Below, piece by piece: positions 5,027-32,259 of a DNA stretch of 64,000 bases. Numbering within the stretch: position 1 is the stretch's first letter; each line of letters starts with the position of its first letter. The DNA is taken from positions 140,266-204,265 of the forward strand of contig JBMNHB010000001.1 in assembly GCA_050950145.1 (NCBI GenBank), in the 5' to 3' direction. A program made the position numbers and the translations under genes. Source of the stretch: Candidatus Dojkabacteria bacterium. Its GTDB lineage: Bacteria > Patescibacteriota > Dojkabacteria > SC72. The notes under the pieces are model-generated. The model had not been told where the DNA came from and did no database searches. It saw nothing but the letters and a program-made list of their open reading frames with translations.

Positions 5027-5719
5027 ATGGACGAAAAGAAATTTAGAAAATCTAGAGGAGAAAAGAAAGTATTTGAGAAGAAAACTCTTCCAGTAAGAAG
5101 GGTTGCTAAGGTTACCAAAGGAGGGAAGAAGTTAAGATTTAGTACAGTAGTTGTTGTAGGTGATAGAAATGGAACAGTTGGAGTTGCTCTTGGAAGGGGA
5201 GCAGATGTAAGGACAGCAGTAGCACAAGGAGAGAGGTTAGCAACAAAGGTAGCAACAAGGATAGAATTAGCTGGAGACACTATTCCTCATGAAGTTATTC
5301 ACAAATTTGGTGCTTCTAAAGTACTTTTAAGGCCGGCAAGACCAGGTACTGGAGTAATTGCAGGATCTTCTGTAAGAACAGTATTAGAATTAGCAGGTGT
5401 AGATAATGTATACGGAAAGATTTTAGGTAGTTCTGATGCAAATGGTAATGCATATTGTACATTTGAAGCGCTAAAAATATTGAGAAATGCAAGAGTATTG
5501 TCAAGAATGACAAAAATGCAAGAAAGAATTGCTTTAAAGGCAGAAACAGAAAAGGAAAGAAGAGCTAAAGAAGAAAAAAGAAGGAAGAAAGAGATGGCGA
5601 AAAAGAAAGCTGATAAAAAGAGTAAATTTGCAAAGAAAGATAGAAAGAAACCTGTTAAAAAAGAGGTTAAGAAAGAGGAAACTAAAAAAGCAGAAGATAA
5701 AGTAAGTAAAGAAAAGTAA
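5027..5719 (+). CDS. rpsE: 30S ribosomal protein S5, with a roughly 70-aa Lys/Glu-rich C-terminal extension
   Basis: S5 core (VRRVAKVTKGGKKLRFSTVVVVGDRNGTVGVALGRGADV...). Tail is KAETEKERRAKEEKRRKKEMAKKK... Confidence 0.95.
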   Translation: MDEKKFRKSRGEKKVFEKKTLPVRRVAKVTKGGKKLRFSTVVVVGDRNGTVGVALGRGADVRTAVAQGERLATKVATRIELAGDTIPHEVIHKFGASKVLLRPARPGTGVIAGSSVRTVLELAGVDNVYGKILGSSDANGNAYCTFEALKILRNARVLSRMTKMQERIALKAETEKERRAKEEKRRKKEMAKKKADKKSKFAKKDRKKPVKKEVKKEETKKAEDKVSKEK

Positions 5720-6162
5720 TGAAACTAGAGAATATACCAAAAAGAAAAAATAGAATAATGGCAGGAAAGAGAAAAGGAAGAGGGTATGGATCTGGTGTTG
5801 GTGGTCATACAATTGGAAGAGGTACAAAAGGTCAAACATCTAGAGCTGGACATAAATCTATGCAGTTCTTTGAAGGTGGTAATGTACCATTCTTTAGAAG
5901 AATGCCTAAATACAAAGGTTTTAATCAGAAATTTAAAGTAGAAGCTCAGGCTATTAATTTAGAGACTCTAGAGAAAGAATTCAAAGATGATGATGTTGTA
6001 AATATGGAAACTCTGCTTAAAAAAGGAATTGCTAAAAAGAATTCAAAAGCAGTAAAGATCCTAGGTAAGGGTGATATTAAAAAGAAACTTACAATAGAAG
6101 GTATTGAAACATCACAATCTGCACTTGCAAAAATAGAAAAAGCTGGTGGTTCTATAAAATAA
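5719..6162 (+). CDS. rplO: 50S ribosomal protein L15
   Basis: GKRKGRGYGSGVGGHTIGRGTKGQTSRAG matches L15. Its start overlaps the S5 stop (TAATG), so no L30 gene lies between S5 and L15. Confidence 0.9.
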   Translation: MKLENIPKRKNRIMAGKRKGRGYGSGVGGHTIGRGTKGQTSRAGHKSMQFFEGGNVPFFRRMPKYKGFNQKFKVEAQAINLETLEKEFKDDDVVNMETLLKKGIAKKNSKAVKILGKGDIKKKLTIEGIETSQSALAKIEKAGGSIK

Positions 6163-6175
6163 CCTCCTAAATACA

Positions 6176-7441
6176 ATGAAAAAATTGATTGAGAGACTCA
6201 AGCAAATTTTTAAAACAAAAGAAATTAGAGATAAAATAATCTTCTCTTTATTAATCTTAGTCATTTTTAGACTACTTTCCTCAGTTCCGGTAGCAGGTAT
6301 CCCTGCAGATGCTATTAAAAGTCTTTTTGAGGGAACAAGTATGGGAGATGTTCTTTCTGCAGTATCAGGTGGTGTTTTAGAAACAGCATCTATTGTTGCG
6401 ATTGGTCTAACTCCGTATATTAATGCCTCTATTATCTTCCAACTATTAGGTACAGTTATCCCAGCACTAGATGAAACAAGAAAAGAAGGTGCTGATGGAA
6501 GAAGGAAAATATCTATGTATACAAGACTTCTTACTGTACCACTAGCTGTATTACAATCTTTTGTTATTTACTCAACTTTGTTAGGTTTTGGATTAATTAC
6601 TAAATTAGGACCGTTAGAATTAGCAACAATGGTAGCAACATTTACTGCAGGTTCCGTAATGATGATGTGGTTTGGTGAATTAATATCCGAAAGTGGTCTT
6701 GGTGGTGGTACATCTTATCTAATTATGTTGGGTATTTTAGCTGGTATTCCTGGAACTGTAAGATCTAACTTTGTAATGATGGATGGATTACAGAAAGCCT
6801 TGTTCATCGCTATCTCGCTAATAATGATTATTGCCGTAGTTGTTGTTACAACAGCAGAAAGAAGGGTCAAAGTACAATACTCAAGAAGAGTTAGGACAGG
6901 AGGAGCATTAGAAAGTTATGTTCCTATTAAACTAACTCAATCAGGAGTTATGCCAGTAATTTTTGCAATGGCATTTCTTTCTTTTCCACAATTAGTAGGA
7001 AAATTCCTTGTTAGTAAGAATTTTAACCCAACTGTTACAGATATCGCTCAAAAAGTAATGGATTTTCTAAATAATCCATATGCTAAAGATATACTAACCT
7101 TTGTTTTAGTTATTGCGTTCTCATTCTTCTATCTATCTGTTGTATTCAAAACAGATGAATTAGCAGAGAATTTACAAAAACAAGGAGCTTTCATTCAAGG
7201 TATTAGACCTGGAGAACAGACATCTCGATATTTGCAAAAGATTAGTCTTAGACTTGCTGGTGTTGGTGCAATCTTTTTAGCATTACTCTCAATCCTTCCT
7301 GATATATTTGTAAGAATAGGATTAGTAAGTGGTGCAGTATTCTCTGGTACGGGACTCTTAATTGTAATAGGTGTGATTCTTGAGATTAAAAGGCAGGTGG
7401 AATCTATGATTACAACAAGGAGTTATGATAAATACCTTTAA
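6176..7441 (+). CDS. secY: Preprotein translocase subunit SecY
   Basis: 421-aa polytopic membrane protein after L15, with a SecY-like sequence. Confidence 0.95.
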   Translation: MKKLIERLKQIFKTKEIRDKIIFSLLILVIFRLLSSVPVAGIPADAIKSLFEGTSMGDVLSAVSGGVLETASIVAIGLTPYINASIIFQLLGTVIPALDETRKEGADGRRKISMYTRLLTVPLAVLQSFVIYSTLLGFGLITKLGPLELATMVATFTAGSVMMMWFGELISESGLGGGTSYLIMLGILAGIPGTVRSNFVMMDGLQKALFIAISLIMIIAVVVVTTAERRVKVQYSRRVRTGGALESYVPIKLTQSGVMPVIFAMAFLSFPQLVGKFLVSKNFNPTVTDIAQKVMDFLNNPYAKDILTFVLVIAFSFFYLSVVFKTDELAENLQKQGAFIQGIRPGEQTSRYLQKISLRLAGVGAIFLALLSILPDIFVRIGLVSGAVFSGTGLLIVIGVILEIKRQVESMITTRSYDKYL

Positions 7442-7478
7442 TAGAAGGTGCTAATATAATCTTTGTTTAATAACATAT

Positions 7479-8153
7479 ATGAAAAACATCTTAAATAAAC
7501 CAGCAACAATCCTTTTTCATGGACCATCTGGTTGTGGAAAGGATACCCAGGTAGATCTTCTTGTTCAAAAATATGGTTTTGAGAATATAGGTACAGGTGA
7601 GATGATTAGGAAAATGTATGATGCAAAGGATGAAGATGCTGTAATTGCCACCGAAGAATATACATCTAAAGGACTATTTGTTCCTAACGATATCATATAT
7701 AACAGAATGTTTCCCAAGTGGCTTAATAGATTTGATTCTAAAAAGAATTGGGCTTTTGTTTCCGTAGTAAGGGATGTGGGACAAGTTGAACTTTTTGATG
7801 AATTACTTAAATCTAAAGGAAGAGAACTAGATCTTTTCATACATTTTACCCTTTCTGCTGAAACAGCGATAGAAAGAATGTCTGTTCGTACATATTGTCC
7901 TAGTTGTGGCATGACATTCCACCCCAAGTTTAAGAAAGAGAAGGTACAAGGAATTTGTGATAAGTGTAATACGAAATTGATTCAAAGAGATGATGACAAA
8001 CCAGAGAAAATTAGAAAGAGAATAGAAGAATACAATAGAACTATTAGTCCGATATTGGAAAAATATAGAGAAAGAGAGATCTTAGTTGAAGTAGATGCAG
8101 CACCAAGTATTGAAGATATTCACAAGGAAATACTTAGGATATTAGATTTGTAG
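7479..8153 (+). CDS. adk: Adenylate kinase with a zinc-binding lid
   Basis: P-loop FHGPSGCGKDTQ. Lid region has CPSCG...CDKC. Position after secY. Confidence 0.9.
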   Translation: MKNILNKPATILFHGPSGCGKDTQVDLLVQKYGFENIGTGEMIRKMYDAKDEDAVIATEEYTSKGLFVPNDIIYNRMFPKWLNRFDSKKNWAFVSVVRDVGQVELFDELLKSKGRELDLFIHFTLSAETAIERMSVRTYCPSCGMTFHPKFKKEKVQGICDKCNTKLIQRDDDKPEKIRKRIEEYNRTISPILEKYREREILVEVDAAPSIEDIHKEILRILDL

Positions 8154-8159
8154 AGAGAT

Positions 8160-8792
8160 ATGAAAACTAATTTTGTTTTTGAACACTCTACTCCAGAAGA
8201 GTCAGCGAAGAAAAAACCTGCAATCTTTTTATTCCACGGATATGGAAGTGATGAGAGAGATTTATTATCACTTGTAGAAGATTTTAAAGAGACACATCAT
8301 ATTTTTAGTTTAAGAGGTCCAATTACCGTTTTTCCAGGATATGCATTTTGGAATTTTGAAGAAAATGGTCAGCCTGTAAGTGCCGAATTTGATGAGGTGT
8401 TGAAATCTGCACAGGTTTTCATCAATGAGGCAATTCAAGAATATAACTTAGACACTAAAAACATTGTATTGTTCGGCTTTAGTCAGGGAGCAATGTTAGC
8501 ACAAAGTTTAGCATTGATTATGGGGGAGAGTATAAGTAAGGTTGTTGCACTTAGTGGTTATGTACCAGATTTTGTAAAAGAAGATAGATATACTAAAAAG
8601 TCTGTTAAACATCTTAAGATTTTTATATCTCATGGTATTGATGATATGGTTGTGCCTTATCAGTGGGGAGAAGAGAGTAGTGAATATCTTAAATCACTTC
8701 GAGCAAAAGTTACTTTTAAATCATATGTTAGTGGACATTTTGTAACACCTGAGAATGGAAAAGATTTAGTAGAGTTTATAAAAGAAGAATGA
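8160..8792 (+). CDS. Alpha/beta hydrolase, phospholipase/carboxylesterase family
   Basis: GFSQG nucleophile-elbow motif, FLFHGYGSDE, and a late HG..D region. It occupies the slot normally held by map. Confidence 0.7.
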   Translation: MKTNFVFEHSTPEESAKKKPAIFLFHGYGSDERDLLSLVEDFKETHHIFSLRGPITVFPGYAFWNFEENGQPVSAEFDEVLKSAQVFINEAIQEYNLDTKNIVLFGFSQGAMLAQSLALIMGESISKVVALSGYVPDFVKEDRYTKKSVKHLKIFISHGIDDMVVPYQWGEESSEYLKSLRAKVTFKSYVSGHFVTPENGKDLVEFIKEE

Positions 8793-8882
8793 TGAAAGTG
8801 CTTGTAAAAATGTCTTTTTTTTGCTATCCTTACCTTGTCTATTTCAAAGGCATCTAACATAGTAATATTTATATTATTTATG

Positions 8883-8911
8883 TTGATTTACTAGTCTTCC
8901 TTTGGTATAAT
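8883..8911 (+). promoter_or_regulatory. sigma70-like promoter upstream of infA
   Basis: TTGATT, a 17-nt spacer, then TATAAT at 8906-8911. This lies about 36 nt upstream of the infA ATG. Confidence 0.5.
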
Positions 8912-8947
8912 TCCAAAGATTCCACTAGTGTGGATTATTGACTAACT

Positions 8948-9181
8948 ATGAATGATAGTAAAAAAGTTTTTGAATTTGATGGAGTAGTGAAAGAGAGTTT
9001 ACCAAATACTCAATTCATTGTTGAGATTGAGGTAAATGGATCTAAACACGAAGTTATTGGATATCTCTCTGGCAAGATGAGAATGCATTACATTCGTATT
9101 CTTGAAGGAGATAAGGTAAAGATAGAGATGACTCCATATGATAAAGAGAGGGGTCGAATAATTTATAGATATATGGATTAA
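8948..9181 (+). CDS. infA: Translation initiation factor IF-1
   Basis: S1-like fold; sequence ...[40 protein letters not shown]... matches IF-1. Confidence 0.95.
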
Positions 9182-9182
9182 A

Positions 9183-9299
9183 ATGAAAGTAAGAGCTTCT
9201 GTAAAAAAGAGATGTTCAGAATGTTACACTGTTAAAAGAAAAAACAGGGTATATGTCTATTGTAGAAAGAATCCTAAACATAAACAGAGGCAGGGTTAA
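9183..9299 (+). CDS. rpmJ: 50S ribosomal protein L36
   Basis: Not in the ORF track. Manual translation gives [38 protein letters not shown] (38 aa, C-x2-C...C...H zinc ribbon). Canonical position between infA and rpsM. Confidence 0.9.
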
Positions 9300-28650: not shown

Positions 28651-29394
28651 ATGAAAATTAAAAATATTGTAATATCTTTTGTACTTCTTTTGTTGTTTGC
28701 AACACCTGTTGTAGCCTACTACGATTTGGGCTCTCCAGAAGGATATGTTAATGACTATACTAATACTCTTACATATGAACAGAAGGATGCATTAGAGAGT
28801 AAGATTTTCACATTTGAGCAGGAGAGTACAAATGAGATTGCTGTTGTAATCATTGATAGTATGAAAGGTGATTACATTGAGAATTTTGCAGTAAAACTTT
28901 TTGAAAGCTGGGGGATTGGGAAAGAGAAAGAAGATAATGGGGTATTAATACTTGTTTCAATGAGTGAAAGACAGATGAGGATTGAAGTAGGATATGGTTT
29001 AGAAGGTTCTCTTACAGATGCTCAGGCTAGTTGGATTATTAAGAATGTAATGGTTCCTAATTTTAAGGAGAATGGATATTATGAAGGTATTGATGGTAGT
29101 GTAGATAAAATTATTGCAATAACTAAAGGGGAATTTGAAGTACCAGAAGAAAAGAATGTTAGGCCATTTATAACTCCCATTGTTATAGCCATCATTATTT
29201 TAGGAGTAATCATAGCTCTCACAATTCAAAAAAAGAAGTATCCTAATTTGGGGAGGTGGAATACAGATAGCAATTCTTCCTTTTCATCTAGTAGTTGGAG
29301 TAGTAGTTCTAGTTCTAGTAGTAGCTCCGGCAGTAGTTCTAGTAGCTTTGGAGATGGAAGCTCTGGAGGAGGTGGTGCTAGTGGAAGTTGGTAG
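28651..29394 (+). CDS. TPM-domain protein with a C-terminal TM and Ser/Gly-rich tail
   Basis: YVNDYTNTLTYEQKDALESKI...NEIAVVIIDSM...GVLILVSMSERQMRIEVGYGLEG is the TPM/TLP18.3 fold signature. The tail is SSSWSSSSSSSSSSGSSSSSFGDGSSGGGG. This is the conserved LemA-TPM pair. Confidence 0.8.
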   Translation: MKIKNIVISFVLLLLFATPVVAYYDLGSPEGYVNDYTNTLTYEQKDALESKIFTFEQESTNEIAVVIIDSMKGDYIENFAVKLFESWGIGKEKEDNGVLILVSMSERQMRIEVGYGLEGSLTDAQASWIIKNVMVPNFKENGYYEGIDGSVDKIIAITKGEFEVPEEKNVRPFITPIVIAIIILGVIIALTIQKKKYPNLGRWNTDSNSSFSSSSWSSSSSSSSSSGSSSSSFGDGSSGGGGASGSW

Positions 29395-29998
29395 TTTTAG
29401 AAAAGGTATTCTTAAACGAGATTTCTTTCTTCAAGATATATTTGTTGTACTTAGAGAATTGTTGGGAAAAGTATTAATTCATCAAGAAGGGGATATTGTT
29501 ACAGGAGGAAGAATAATTGAGGTAGAGGCATATCCAGGAGGAGAAGATAAAGGATCGCATACATACCTCAACAAGAGAACACCTAGAACAGAAGTTCAAT
29601 TTGGAGTAGGTGGACATGCATATATCTATACTGTTCATACTCATCATCTTCTGAATATTGTTGTAGGTGAGGAAGGTAAACCAGGAGCTGTTTTAATACG
29701 GGCAATAGAACCAATGTATGGTATTGATAATATGAAAGAGAGAAGAGGTATGGAAGATTTAAAGTCTCTTACAAATGGTCCTGGTAAGTTTACACAAGCT
29801 ATGAATATTACAAAATTATTGAATGGTATAGATCTTTGTAATAATAATTCTGAATTATTTTTAATAGATGATGGTTTTAAGGTTAGAGAAAAAGATATTG
29901 TTAAAACTAAAAGAGTAGGTATTGATTATGCAGAAGAGTTTAGAGATGTACCTTGGAGATGGTATTTGAAAGATAATATGTTTGTTAGTAGGGTGTAG
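29348..29998 (+). CDS. mpg: DNA-3-methyladenine glycosylase (Mpg/AAG family)
   Basis: LLGKVLIHQ...GGRIIEVEAYPGGEDKGSHTY...GGHAYIYTVHTHHLLNIVV...GAVLIRAIEP matches methylpurine glycosylase. The true start is uncertain; the listed ORF overlaps the TPM gene by 47 nt. Confidence 0.75.
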   Translation: MEMEALEEVVLVEVGSFRKGILKRDFFLQDIFVVLRELLGKVLIHQEGDIVTGGRIIEVEAYPGGEDKGSHTYLNKRTPRTEVQFGVGGHAYIYTVHTHHLLNIVVGEEGKPGAVLIRAIEPMYGIDNMKERRGMEDLKSLTNGPGKFTQAMNITKLLNGIDLCNNNSELFLIDDGFKVREKDIVKTKRVGIDYAEEFRDVPWRWYLKDNMFVSRV

Positions 29999-30046: not shown

Positions 30047-30913
30047 TTACCTCATACACAAAGCTCCCTCTCTAACCCAAGAATATGCAACAGTACCATC
30101 TTGAAATACTACTAACTGTCTAACAAAATCTTTCTTAGGGTCATGTTTGGTTACATAATCAGTATATCTCAAAATATTTCCTTTGTAATCAAAAACACCC
30201 CCTCCCCATACATGTCCATGACACATTTTTGCATTTCTCCTTAACCATATACGTATTCCCAGTAAGTTCAATATGGATGGTGTAAATTCACTTCTACTAC
30301 CATCGGGATGTCCAATTGGCCATGAAGTAATATTATTTATTCCCATTCTAATTAGAGCATGTACAGCCTCTTCATATTTTTTTGCACTATTGACACCATC
30401 TTTTCTCAAGAGTAAGGTACCTCTTACTCCTAATCCATGTTTCTCCACATTATGAACAATCTTTTCAAACTTAGGATAGCTTTTAATGTTGTATGTCTCA
30501 GCTTGTTTCTTCTCATCTACATCATGTATTGATATTGCAACATTGTTTAACCCTAATTCTCTCCATGTATCTAAATATCTATCACAGAACTCTTCATTTC
30601 CAAGTAAAATACCATTAGAAAAAAGATTTACATTTGGAAAATATGCTCCTTGATCTGCACATTTCTTGTATATTTTCAAAGCATTAGTAAGAGCATCTGG
30701 ATCTGTTGTTGGTTCTCCACTTGAAGTTAGTGATAGAGACCAACCACCATATCTTGCTGATAATTTTATTGCTGATTCCAAATTTTTATCATATAGCTTA
30801 TTTATCTTTGCCTGTGGTCTTAAATATTTACCAGCACAAAAGTCACAGTTCGCATTACATGAACCACACCCAACTAGTGCAGAGACACTGTATATTTTTT
30901 CAATACATGCCAT
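30047..30913 (-). CDS. Radical SAM protein of unknown function
   Basis: N-terminal CGSCNANCDFC (C-x3-C-x2-C) and a glycine-rich SAM motif (SLSLTSSGEPTTDP). 288 aa. Immediately downstream of nrdR on the same strand. Confidence 0.7.
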   Translation of the reverse strand: MACIEKIYSVSALVGCGSCNANCDFCAGKYLRPQAKINKLYDKNLESAIKLSARYGGWSLSLTSSGEPTTDPDALTNALKIYKKCADQGAYFPNVNLFSNGILLGNEEFCDRYLDTWRELGLNNVAISIHDVDEKKQAETYNIKSYPKFEKIVHNVEKHGLGVRGTLLLRKDGVNSAKKYEEAVHALIRMGINNITSWPIGHPDGSRSEFTPSILNLLGIRIWLRRNAKMCHGHVWGGGVFDYKGNILRYTDYVTKHDPKKDFVRQLVVFQDGTVAYSWVREGALCMR

Positions 30914-30930
30914 ATTTATTGATTAATTAA

Positions 30931-30960
30931 TTTATTTATTTATTTATTTATTTATTTATT
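30931..30960. repeat. Tetranucleotide simple sequence repeat (TTTA)x7.5
   Basis: TTTATTTATTTATTTATTTATTTATTTATT read directly. It lies 18-47 nt upstream of the radical SAM start codon, which is on the minus strand. Confidence 0.9.
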
Positions 30961-31058
30961 AACCAATGATAACCATGTCTTCCAATGAATGATATATAGA
31001 TGGGTGGATGGGTTTTGAAAGTAGTAAAGGTTAGAAAATGAGTTTTGAAAACAAAACT

Positions 31059-31556
31059 TTACTTATTCTCTTCTGTTATATGACTACATCTTGCTATATA
31101 GTTCTGAAGAATTTCCTGAAGTTCTTTCTTCTCTTTGTCATTTTTTAAGAAGTAAGAGATATAGTTCATAGCAGCACCCATATTTTTTTGTACAAGTATA
31201 CATACTGTAATATCAAACAACTCTTGGGTACTGATTTCTTTAAGATTTTTTGCAATAATGATTTTTTCTACTTCTTCAGTACAAATTTTAGCATTAGTAG
31301 CACAATCTCCTGTGTCTGCATTTTTTTGTTTTAGAAAAGAACTTAAGATACTACTGAAAAGTTTTTCGTGTGAGTATTTCTGTTTTGAAGAATTTCTTTT
31401 CTTAACTATTATATAGTCTAGATTAACACTTTCATATGTAGTGAATGTATTAAGACAGTGTATACATTTCCTTCTTCTCCATGTAGCATATCCAGAAAAT
31501 GTTTCTCTTGAATTTGTTACAACCATTTCCTGACTATTACAAAATGGACATTTCAT
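31059..31556 (-). CDS. nrdR: Transcriptional repressor NrdR
   Basis: MKCPFCNSQEMVVTNSRE...RRRKCIHCLNTFTTYE zinc ribbon followed by an ATP-cone domain. Confidence 0.9.
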   Translation of the reverse strand: MKCPFCNSQEMVVTNSRETFSGYATWRRRKCIHCLNTFTTYESVNLDYIIVKKRNSSKQKYSHEKLFSSILSSFLKQKNADTGDCATNAKICTEEVEKIIIAKNLKEISTQELFDITVCILVQKNMGAAMNYISYFLKNDKEKKELQEILQNYIARCSHITEENK

Positions 31557-31611
31557 TAGCCTATGGATATATCTTAATACCTAATTATACCTAAAAATAG
31601 TATAATATACT

Positions 31612-32259
31612 ATGACAAAGTTTGACATAATAACAATATTTCCTAAAACAATAGAGGAATATATAAATACAGGAATAATAAGAATAGCAAGAGAAAAAGG
31701 TCTTGTTAAAATTAATGTTCATGATCTAAGAAAATGGGCTACTGATAGACACAAAACAGTAGATGATACACCATACGGAGGTGGTCCAGGTATGATAATG
31801 AAGGTAGAGCCAATATACAAAGCTATCCAAGAATTAAAGAAGGAAAACACTTTAGTTGCAATTACAACACCAAAAGGAGAACAACTTAAACAAAAAAAGT
31901 TAGTAGAATTTTCCAAAGAAAAAGACTTACATATGATAATTCTTTGTGGAAGATATGAAGGTTTTGATCAGAGGATACATGATCACTTAGTAGACTATGA
32001 ATTTTCAGTAGGGGAGTATGTTCTCTCTGGAGGAGAGTTACCTGCTTTAGTCTTGGTAGATGGCATAACAAGACTAATTTCAGGAGTATTAGGTAATGAA
32101 TCTTCATTAGAAAATGAATCATTCAATAATGATATGTTAGAATATCCTCAATATACAAAACCAGAAGTATTCAACAAATGGTCTGTTCCAAAAGTACTTT
32201 TATCAGGTAATCATAAAGAGATTGAAAATTTCAGAAAAAAAGGGCAGAAAATGGTATAA
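31612..32259 (+). CDS. trmD: tRNA (guanine37-N1)-methyltransferase
   Basis: FDIITIFP...TPYGGGPGMIMKVEPI matches TrmD (SPOUT fold). Confidence 0.95.
   Translation: MTKFDIITIFPKTIEEYINTGIIRIAREKGLVKINVHDLRKWATDRHKTVDDTPYGGGPGMIMKVEPIYKAIQELKKENTLVAITTPKGEQLKQKKLVEFSKEKDLHMIILCGRYEGFDQRIHDHLVDYEFSVGEYVLSGGELPALVLVDGITRLISGVLGNESSLENESFNNDMLEYPQYTKPEVFNKWSVPKVLLSGNHKEIENFRKKGQKMV

Follow-up and report, generated by a model that had tools for sequence, protein, structure and literature searches.

A conserved radical SAM family of DPANN archaea, CPR bacteria and phages, recurrently linked to an NrdR-like regulator: a candidate free-nucleotide-modifying enzyme

Introduction

NrdR is regarded as a dedicated repressor of ribonucleotide reductase (RNR) genes. 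A stretch of 64,000 nucleotides from a Candidatus Dojkabacteria genome (contig JBMNHB010000001.1, positions 140,266 to 204,265; hereafter the window) raises the question of what such a regulator does beside a gene of another kind. Here an NrdR-like gene is followed directly, on the same strand, by an intact gene for a radical S-adenosylmethionine (SAM) protein of 288 residues, which we call rSAM288 (Table 1). The original prediction, made from the sequence of the window and accurate in its description of this pair, offered two answers: the enzyme could be a glycyl-radical activase of NrdG type, unusually long and encoded apart from its reductase, or a radical SAM enzyme of an unrelated kind whose expression is tied to nucleotide metabolism. 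Searches of the literature returned nothing on the rSAM288 family, nor on the RNR content of the lineages that carry it.

On balance we lean towards reading rSAM288 as a free-nucleotide-modifying radical SAM enzyme encoded in a mobile cassette that is coupled to an NrdR-like gene; we infer its substrate, chemistry, product and NrdR-dependent regulation from motifs, predicted fold and genomic context. The second of the two earlier answers thus pointed in the right direction, given that an NrdR-like gene adjoins rSAM288 in eight loci and that its other neighbours are nucleotide enzymes. Because the family recurrently travels with an NrdR-like regulator, it probably carries out an as yet uncharacterised chemistry on nucleotides.

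Results

An unnamed radical SAM family of predicted MoaA/viperin type

rSAM288 has the defining features of the radical SAM superfamily: a CX3CX2C motif within GCGSCNANCDFCAG (residues 15–28), a GGE motif (LTSSGEPT, residues 62–69) and a partial TIM barrel. The SSGEP stretch had been taken for a signature of the pyruvate formate-lyase activating enzyme (PFL-AE) and NrdG, and turns out to be the generic SAM-binding GGE motif of radical SAM proteins. The sole Pfam match is Radical_SAM (PF04055), at 48.3 bits against a cut-off of 29.5. C19, C23, C26, G66 and E67 are invariant in the family, as are four cysteines beyond those of the cluster motif, C3, C110, C231 and C286. At residue 70, where 95% of family members have Cys (SSGEPTC), the window copy has Thr; it retains all other residues that are invariant in the family.

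An AlphaFold2 model of the protein (pLDDT 93.4, pTM 0.91) shows a radical SAM barrel of six strands, (beta/alpha)6, and after it a C-terminal beta domain of five strands. In a Foldseek search of the PDB this model matched MoaA best (template modelling score, TM, 0.65–0.67), with fungal and mouse viperins next (about 0.6) and SPASM maturases after them. A profile of the family ranked the same two groups highly among PDB proteins, with E values of 8e-13 for MoaA and 2e-10 for viperins. MoaA, the GTP 3',8-cyclase, and the viperins are nucleoside-triphosphate radical SAM enzymes. Judged from the predicted structure, rSAM288 shares its fold class with MoaA and viperin. Among the families that the original prediction had named for comparison (NrdG/PflA, viperin, QueE and SPASM), none accommodates the protein; what the searches did return is this fold class.

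The likeness to MoaA extends to the N-terminal CX3CX2C motif and to residues of the active site. N100, S128 and R164, the counterparts of MoaA N104, S126 and K163, are invariant in the rSAM288 family, and the extra cysteines would be compatible with a second cluster. Unlike MoaA, rSAM288 lacks the C-terminal CX2CX13C motif and scores far below the MoaA models (TIGR02666, 27.1 bits against a cut-off of 284; TIGR02668, 24.7 against 325), and no MoaC, MoaB, MoaE or other gene for the molybdenum cofactor occurs in the surveyed neighbourhoods. The host lineages are not known to make this cofactor. No NCBIfam model attains its cut-off on rSAM288. Assignment as QueE, a SPASM maturase or LipS1 was considered and rejected, with no model near its cut-off. 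Pfam and NCBIfam scans of the protein gave no SPASM or twitch domain, and no peptide-precursor context was found.

On sequence comparison, rSAM288 belongs to an unnamed, tightly conserved radical SAM family. In a search space of 5.8 billion proteins its homologues form 597 clusters, named just 'radical SAM protein' or annotated generically as AslB or MoaA/NifB/PqqE. The best 120 of the 597 are nearly all 288 residues long and 73–82% identical, and come mostly from metagenome-assembled genomes (MAGs) of Woese-, Nano-, Pace- and Parvarchaeota. The family is common to DPANN archaea, a few bacteria of the candidate phyla radiation (CPR) and phages, at 58–82% identity. An alignment of 39 members from archaea, CPR bacteria and viruses has 27% of its positions invariant and 49% at least 90% conserved. 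With clustering at 50% identity, the family reduces to one full-length cluster and some fragments; the nearest full-length proteins outside it are only 42–45% identical, and beyond them lies a broad set of unnamed proteins of roughly 265–330 residues (mostly about 290) at about 30% identity. One 30%-identical relative (locus L055, 5001–7249) overlaps an adenylosuccinate-synthetase-like gene by 4 bp and lies near genes for IMPDH and a phosphoribosyltransferase-like protein, in a phage-like run of small open reading frames (ORFs) on the same strand.

Linkage to NrdR-like genes and to nucleotide enzymes

We surveyed the neighbourhoods of 40 non-redundant rSAM288 loci. An NrdR-like gene adjoins rSAM288 in eight independent loci drawn from both domains. 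The two genes stand in tandem in the window and in L056. In two archaeal-type loci, L009 and L018, a CYTH gene lies between the members of the tandem, and in four CPR loci (L034, L039, L040 and L052) the two genes are divergently oriented. Adjacency in eight loci and in three arrangements argues against a single accident.

A second regulator type dominates the rest of the survey. In 29 loci rSAM288 is preceded by a divergently transcribed gene for a 279-residue protein (for example L001, 6083–6922), which is typical of the archaeal operon. This protein has no Pfam match, and its structure model resembles TrmBL2, with a winged helix and a phospholipase D (PLD)-like domain. Its family counts at least 1181 clusters, each carrying the annotation 'hypothetical', against 597 for rSAM288; being about twice as widespread, it may have wider roles. 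The NrdR-like and TrmBL2-like genes are mutually exclusive upstream of rSAM288, with no co-occurrence in the surveyed loci, a pattern that would fit replacement of one regulator by the other.

Also frequent nearby are genes for an AAA_28 kinase, a CYTH triphosphatase and a radical SAM paralogue of about 270 residues, the last of which usually overlaps the rSAM288 stop codon. Other loci carry a TMPK-like kinase, a third radical SAM protein with weak similarity to viperin, NT5C-like nucleotidases, a metallophosphoesterase (Metallophos) and a dCTP-deaminase-like (DCD) protein that matches its model at 130 bits. In L012 (8107–9850) and L022 (8272–9991) an overlapping trio stands directly upstream of rSAM288, encoding a TMPK/dNK-like kinase, the third radical SAM protein and the dCTP-deaminase-like protein. 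This radical SAM protein (239–245 residues) reaches 34 bits against a prokaryotic viperin (pVip) model, the best pVip score that we obtained and still a weak one, and the trio looks like a second nucleotide-modifying module. Going by the families to which these genes are assigned, the theme common to the neighbours of rSAM288 is small-molecule nucleotide metabolism.

No glycyl-radical enzyme (NrdD, PFL or other) is encoded within 6–10 kb of about 45 homologues, phage copies included. Nor did ATP-cone searches or motif regular expressions turn up an RNR in the sampled loci, 907 kb in all, a null result that is not significant, since about one would be expected. For the window, the original prediction that nrdD, nrdA and nrdJ are absent agrees with what we found: no RNR catalytic subunit was detected in the 64 kb, NrdB-sized ORFs being scanned only in part. 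Above 520 residues there are only the ORFs for a histidine kinase and an Ig-domain surface protein; regular expressions for RNR active-site and glycyl-radical motifs gave zero matches.

A small and distinct clade of regulators

The NrdR-like protein of the window matches the NrdR zinc ribbon (Zn_ribbon_NrdR, PF22811) at 53.4 bits against a cut-off of 27.2 and, marginally, the ATP-cone (PF03477) at 28.2 bits against 25.8. The zinc ribbon cysteines C3, C6, C31 and C34 are invariant in its clade, which is small (22 matches) and distinct, with WRRRKC and YIIVKK motifs and an insertion in the cone. None of the 11 informative loci with members of this clade has an nrd or RNR gene beside the regulator. 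A metagenome scan with a narrow NrdR alignment returned one locus only.

The zinc-ribbon and ATP-cone architecture is that of the regulator in canonical NrdR-nrd operons. The differences from those operons are that the partner here is a radical SAM protein rather than an RNR, that the regulator falls in a divergent clade and that no NrdR boxes were found. Movement of such a regulator together with an adjoining enzyme gene has a precedent: NrdR was transferred into haloarchaea along with genes under its control, as nrdR-nrdAB cassettes (PMC3019208), and there, as probably here, the pair crossed domains.

Probable joint transfer into a strain-variable island, and carriage by phages

The window copy of rSAM288 is 81% identical to archaeal copies, against 62–70% to other CPR copies. 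In a rough neighbour-joining tree it falls inside the archaeal crown beside the NrdR-bearing L009 and L018, and the other CPR copies are basal. The window NrdR is in turn 61% identical to that of L009, a DPANN-type contig. Nesting of the enzyme among archaeal copies, together with this identity between the regulators, suggests that both genes probably arrived jointly from a donor of DPANN type. We found no compositional trace of recent transfer, as the GC content and the GC content at third codon positions (GC3) equal those of native genes, indicating full amelioration. The gene content of the window is bacterial, with a ribosomal-protein operon, RNase Y, GreA and TrmD.

Comparison with a sister Dojkabacteria strain (L048) places the cassette in a variable site. 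The NrdR proteins of the two strains are 86% identical, and the flanks are shared, with GreA, TrmD and NrdR on one side and MPG and TPM on the other. Downstream of nrdR, L048 encodes (5635–9193) a CYTH protein, a NUDIX protein, an unknown protein of 275 residues, a MazG-like protein, another unknown one of 162 residues and a transglutaminase-like protein of 267 residues; its CYTH is of the type found after nrdR in L009 and L018. The interval between trmD-nrdR and mpg is a strain-variable island of nucleotide-pyrophosphatase-type genes.

Members of the family also occur in phages. A phage region with 57% GC, binned in a 'Pseudomonadota' MAG (L038, 2–9613), carries a copy 68% identical to rSAM288, in the gene order terminase large subunit, rSAM288, portal, protease. 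The gene after the portal encodes a head maturation protease fused to a NUDIX domain. Four IMG/VR contigs contain rSAM288 at 58–70% identity, and in two of these the paralogue is present too; NADAR and HD genes are among the neighbours in viral contigs. Phages in GenBank gave only weak matches, at 30%.

Candidate regulatory sites

The 145-bp spacer between nrdR and rSAM288 contains no terminator or riboswitch. It does contain an 18-nt footprint, CCACCCATCTATATATCA, 77–94 nt upstream of the rSAM288 start codon. Three Dojkabacteria-type loci (the window, L048 and L056) have this element unchanged downstream of nrdR, whichever cassette follows, in surroundings that diverge; 0.06 matches are expected by chance. 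Its conservation makes it a candidate promoter or operator. Between it and the gene, an (AATA)12 microsatellite extends as far as the start codon, with no Shine-Dalgarno sequence visible; the tract could be a slippage-prone modifier of expression or a scar of cassette insertion.

Just upstream of the CYTH start, L009 (5383–5463) and L018 (754–835) have in common an element of the form CCC-N4-5-T(A/G)TATCAACCC ATG. It resembles the CCACCCATCTATATATCA footprint of the Dojkabacteria loci and, on this resemblance, may be a co-transferred regulatory site. On the other side of nrdR, a perfect 17-bp palindrome, ATAGTATATTATACTAT, at 31597–31613 overlaps the trmD start codon. The palindrome and the divergent region 31557–31611 are both identical in L048, so that their conservation is uninformative.

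Weighing the proposed role against its rivals

Several observations weigh against the proposal that rSAM288 modifies free nucleotides under an NrdR-like regulator. The identification of NrdR by its zinc ribbon and ATP cone holds for both domains, yet the protein scores 63.4 bits against the cut-off of 124.65 of the NrdR equivalog model, TIGR00244. We therefore regard it as a divergent NrdR-like protein, and its effector and operator may differ from those of NrdR. NrdR-box palindromes, which the original prediction had raised as a possibility for the spacer and other promoters, do not exceed chance in the window or in related spacers. With a tandem 16-bp consensus (acaCwAtATaTwGtgt), from which the operator of a divergent NrdR-like protein may depart, the window has one match at three or fewer mismatches against 2.2 expected, and this match lies inside coding sequence; the best sites in 13 spacers of 9 NrdR-adjacent loci have 5–9 mismatches. 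Most archaeal loci carry the TrmB-like regulator in place of NrdR, leaving most archaeal copies without the linkage on which the proposal draws. The L048 island lacks rSAM288 and has the CYTH-NUDIX-MazG set in its place, indicating that the gene is dispensable there and speaking against essentiality. Evidence drawn from gene neighbourhoods is, moreover, of an indirect kind. Finally, the profile alignment places Ser at the positions of MoaA K69 and R71 and of the viperin beta-2 lysine, and a triphosphate substrate is thus not assured.

The main rival is a viperin-like conflict function. By analogy with viperin, which turns CTP, UTP or GTP into chain-terminating 3'-deoxy-3',4'-didehydro nucleoside triphosphates (ddhNTPs), rSAM288 would make a nucleotide analogue, or else destroy a nucleotide signal, as part of antiviral defence in cells and of counter-defence or superinfection exclusion in phages. 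The NrdR-like protein would then sense the disturbance of deoxynucleotides caused by infection. We give this proposal a low probability, albeit one that deserves to be taken seriously. It gains from the place of viperin among the best structural and profile matches, with a shared fold class and size (TM about 0.6), and from the nucleotide kinases that stand beside rSAM288 in many loci, archaeal ones among them, much as kinases accompany some prokaryotic viperins and CMPK2 accompanies viperin. The TMPK-like kinase, third radical SAM protein and DCD upstream of rSAM288 in L012 and L022, the variability of the island after nrdR with its NUDIX, MazG and CYTH genes in L048, the phage copies and their NADAR and HD neighbours could all belong to such a module. 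Against it, rSAM288 scores 19.7 bits on NF038283, for which the cut-off is 180, and 19.1 and 17.3 bits on the PADLOC pVip models. The family further departs from viperins in its C-terminal domain, in extra invariant cysteines absent from viperin and in its linkage to NrdR. At 58–82% between domains and viruses, its identity is well above what is usual for defence genes, and the archaeal locus has a stable synteny (TrmB-like regulator, topA) rather than the pattern of a defence island.

A more radical possibility is that the family supplies deoxynucleotides independently of RNR. Starting from the SAM-derived radical, rSAM288 would remove the 2'-OH of ribonucleotides with its invariant cysteines as reductant, and would serve reduced genomes and phages as a compact substitute for RNR. 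Linkage to NrdR that recurs across domains, in neighbourhoods where no RNR gene was seen, is what such a role would predict; so are operon partners such as kinases, NT5C and DCD, which converts dCTP to dUTP, and presence in phages, where RNR is a very frequent auxiliary gene. Extreme conservation fits as well, and the four extra invariant cysteines, two of them near the termini, are reminiscent of the active-site and shuttle pairs of RNR. We nevertheless consider this quite unlikely. The sister-strain island lacks rSAM288, the missing RNR in the 907 kb falls short of significance, and we know of no radical SAM enzyme with ribonucleotide 2'-reduction chemistry, which counts against the idea. 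Its strongest form, in which rSAM288, alone or with its paralogue, is a radical SAM ribonucleotide 2'-reductase and provides a fourth, RNR-unrelated deoxynucleotide route under NrdR in DPANN archaea, some CPR bacteria and phages, is a shade less probable again.

It is similarly improbable that rSAM288 acts on a macromolecule (tRNA, rRNA or protein) or a cofactor and that its adjacency to nrdR reflects hitch-hiking in a mobile cassette. The trmD gene nearby in the window, the many archaeal copies without NrdR and the generic annotations would suit such a role. The recurrent neighbours are small-molecule nucleotide enzymes rather than RNA or protein partners, and the missing SPASM/twitch domain and peptide-precursor context speak against it too.

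The NrdG-like activase first proposed, for a glycyl-radical RNR encoded elsewhere, is scarcely credible despite the common superfamily, the place beside nrdR and the link of NrdG to nrd regulation: rSAM288 scores 11.6 bits (E 0.13) on NrdG2 (TIGR02495; cut-off 131.15) with no PflA (TIGR02493) match reported, PFL-AE and NrdG are absent from the PDB profile matches, NrdG-/PFL-AE-like models rank only 38–48 in a viral structure library (TM 0.42–0.45), no glycyl-radical partner lies near about 45 homologues, among them phage copies where rSAM288 stands alone, and the full barrel with its conserved C-terminal beta domain is larger than, and unlike, the small activases.

Genes and sites around the cassette

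The positions of the features discussed here are collected in Table 1. The gene convergent to rSAM288 is a 3-methyladenine glycosylase, as predicted originally (Pfam Pur_DNA_glyco, 200.9 bits). Its ORF, as listed from a TTG start, overlaps the gene for the TPM-domain protein by 47 bp, and the Pfam match begins at residue 26; the true start is probably further downstream. The TPM-domain protein (28651–29394) ends in a long Ser/Gly-rich tail. Upstream of nrdR, trmD is transcribed in the opposite direction, divergently.

Table 1. Features of the cassette and its flanks, in window coordinates
Feature	Position	Strand	Remarks
Radical SAM gene rSAM288	30047–30913	-	288 residues, intact ORF; cluster cysteines C19/C23/C26
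NrdR-like regulator gene	31059–31556	-	165 residues; zinc ribbon and ATP-cone; divergent
nrdR-rSAM288 spacer	30914–31058	-	145 bp
18-nt footprint CCACCCATCTATATATCA	30990–31007	-	Conserved; candidate promoter or operator
(AATA)12 tetranucleotide microsatellite (gene-strand reading)	30913–30960		Abuts rSAM288 start codon
trmD-nrdR divergent region	31557–31611		55 bp; palindrome ATAGTATATTATACTAT and promoter-like site
Methylpurine-DNA glycosylase gene (mpg)	29348–29998	+	Native flank, right border of variable island; syntenic in L048
trmD	31612–32259	+	Native flank, left border of variable island; syntenic in L048

Discussion

If rSAM288 is a free-nucleotide-modifying enzyme, its reaction would begin with cleavage of SAM at a [4Fe-4S] cluster held by C19, C23 and C26. 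The barrel would bind a free nucleotide, from whose sugar the resulting 5'-deoxyadenosyl radical would abstract a hydrogen atom. The other invariant cysteines, C3, C110, C231 and C286, might ligate an auxiliary Fe-S cluster or act as redox-active thiols in a reductive or dehydrating step.

The enzyme would be expressed from a two-gene cassette with an NrdR-like repressor that senses ATP and dATP. This Dojkabacteria lineage probably gained the cassette, which sits in the variable island between trmD-nrdR and mpg, from a DPANN-type archaeal donor. Expression of rSAM288 would probably be tied, via the NrdR-like protein, to deoxynucleotide and ATP status; coupling of this kind would let rSAM288 adjust or feed the (deoxy)nucleotide pool. 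The horizontal movement of the pair, of DPANN type, its carriage by phages and the lack of a canonical NrdR box among the sites found had all been overlooked in the original prediction.

The pair also offers a clear case of genes passing from DPANN archaea into CPR bacteria along with their regulator. The family is compact, highly conserved and mobile among archaea, bacteria and viruses, and should express easily; its reaction is therefore directly testable, RNR-independent deoxynucleotide synthesis included. That an NrdR-like gene is repeatedly coupled, across domains, to a radical SAM enzyme of uncharacterised function, where no RNR is seen nearby, points to an unknown NrdR-linked step in (deoxy)nucleotide metabolism, one that would concern the smallest cellular genomes and phages.

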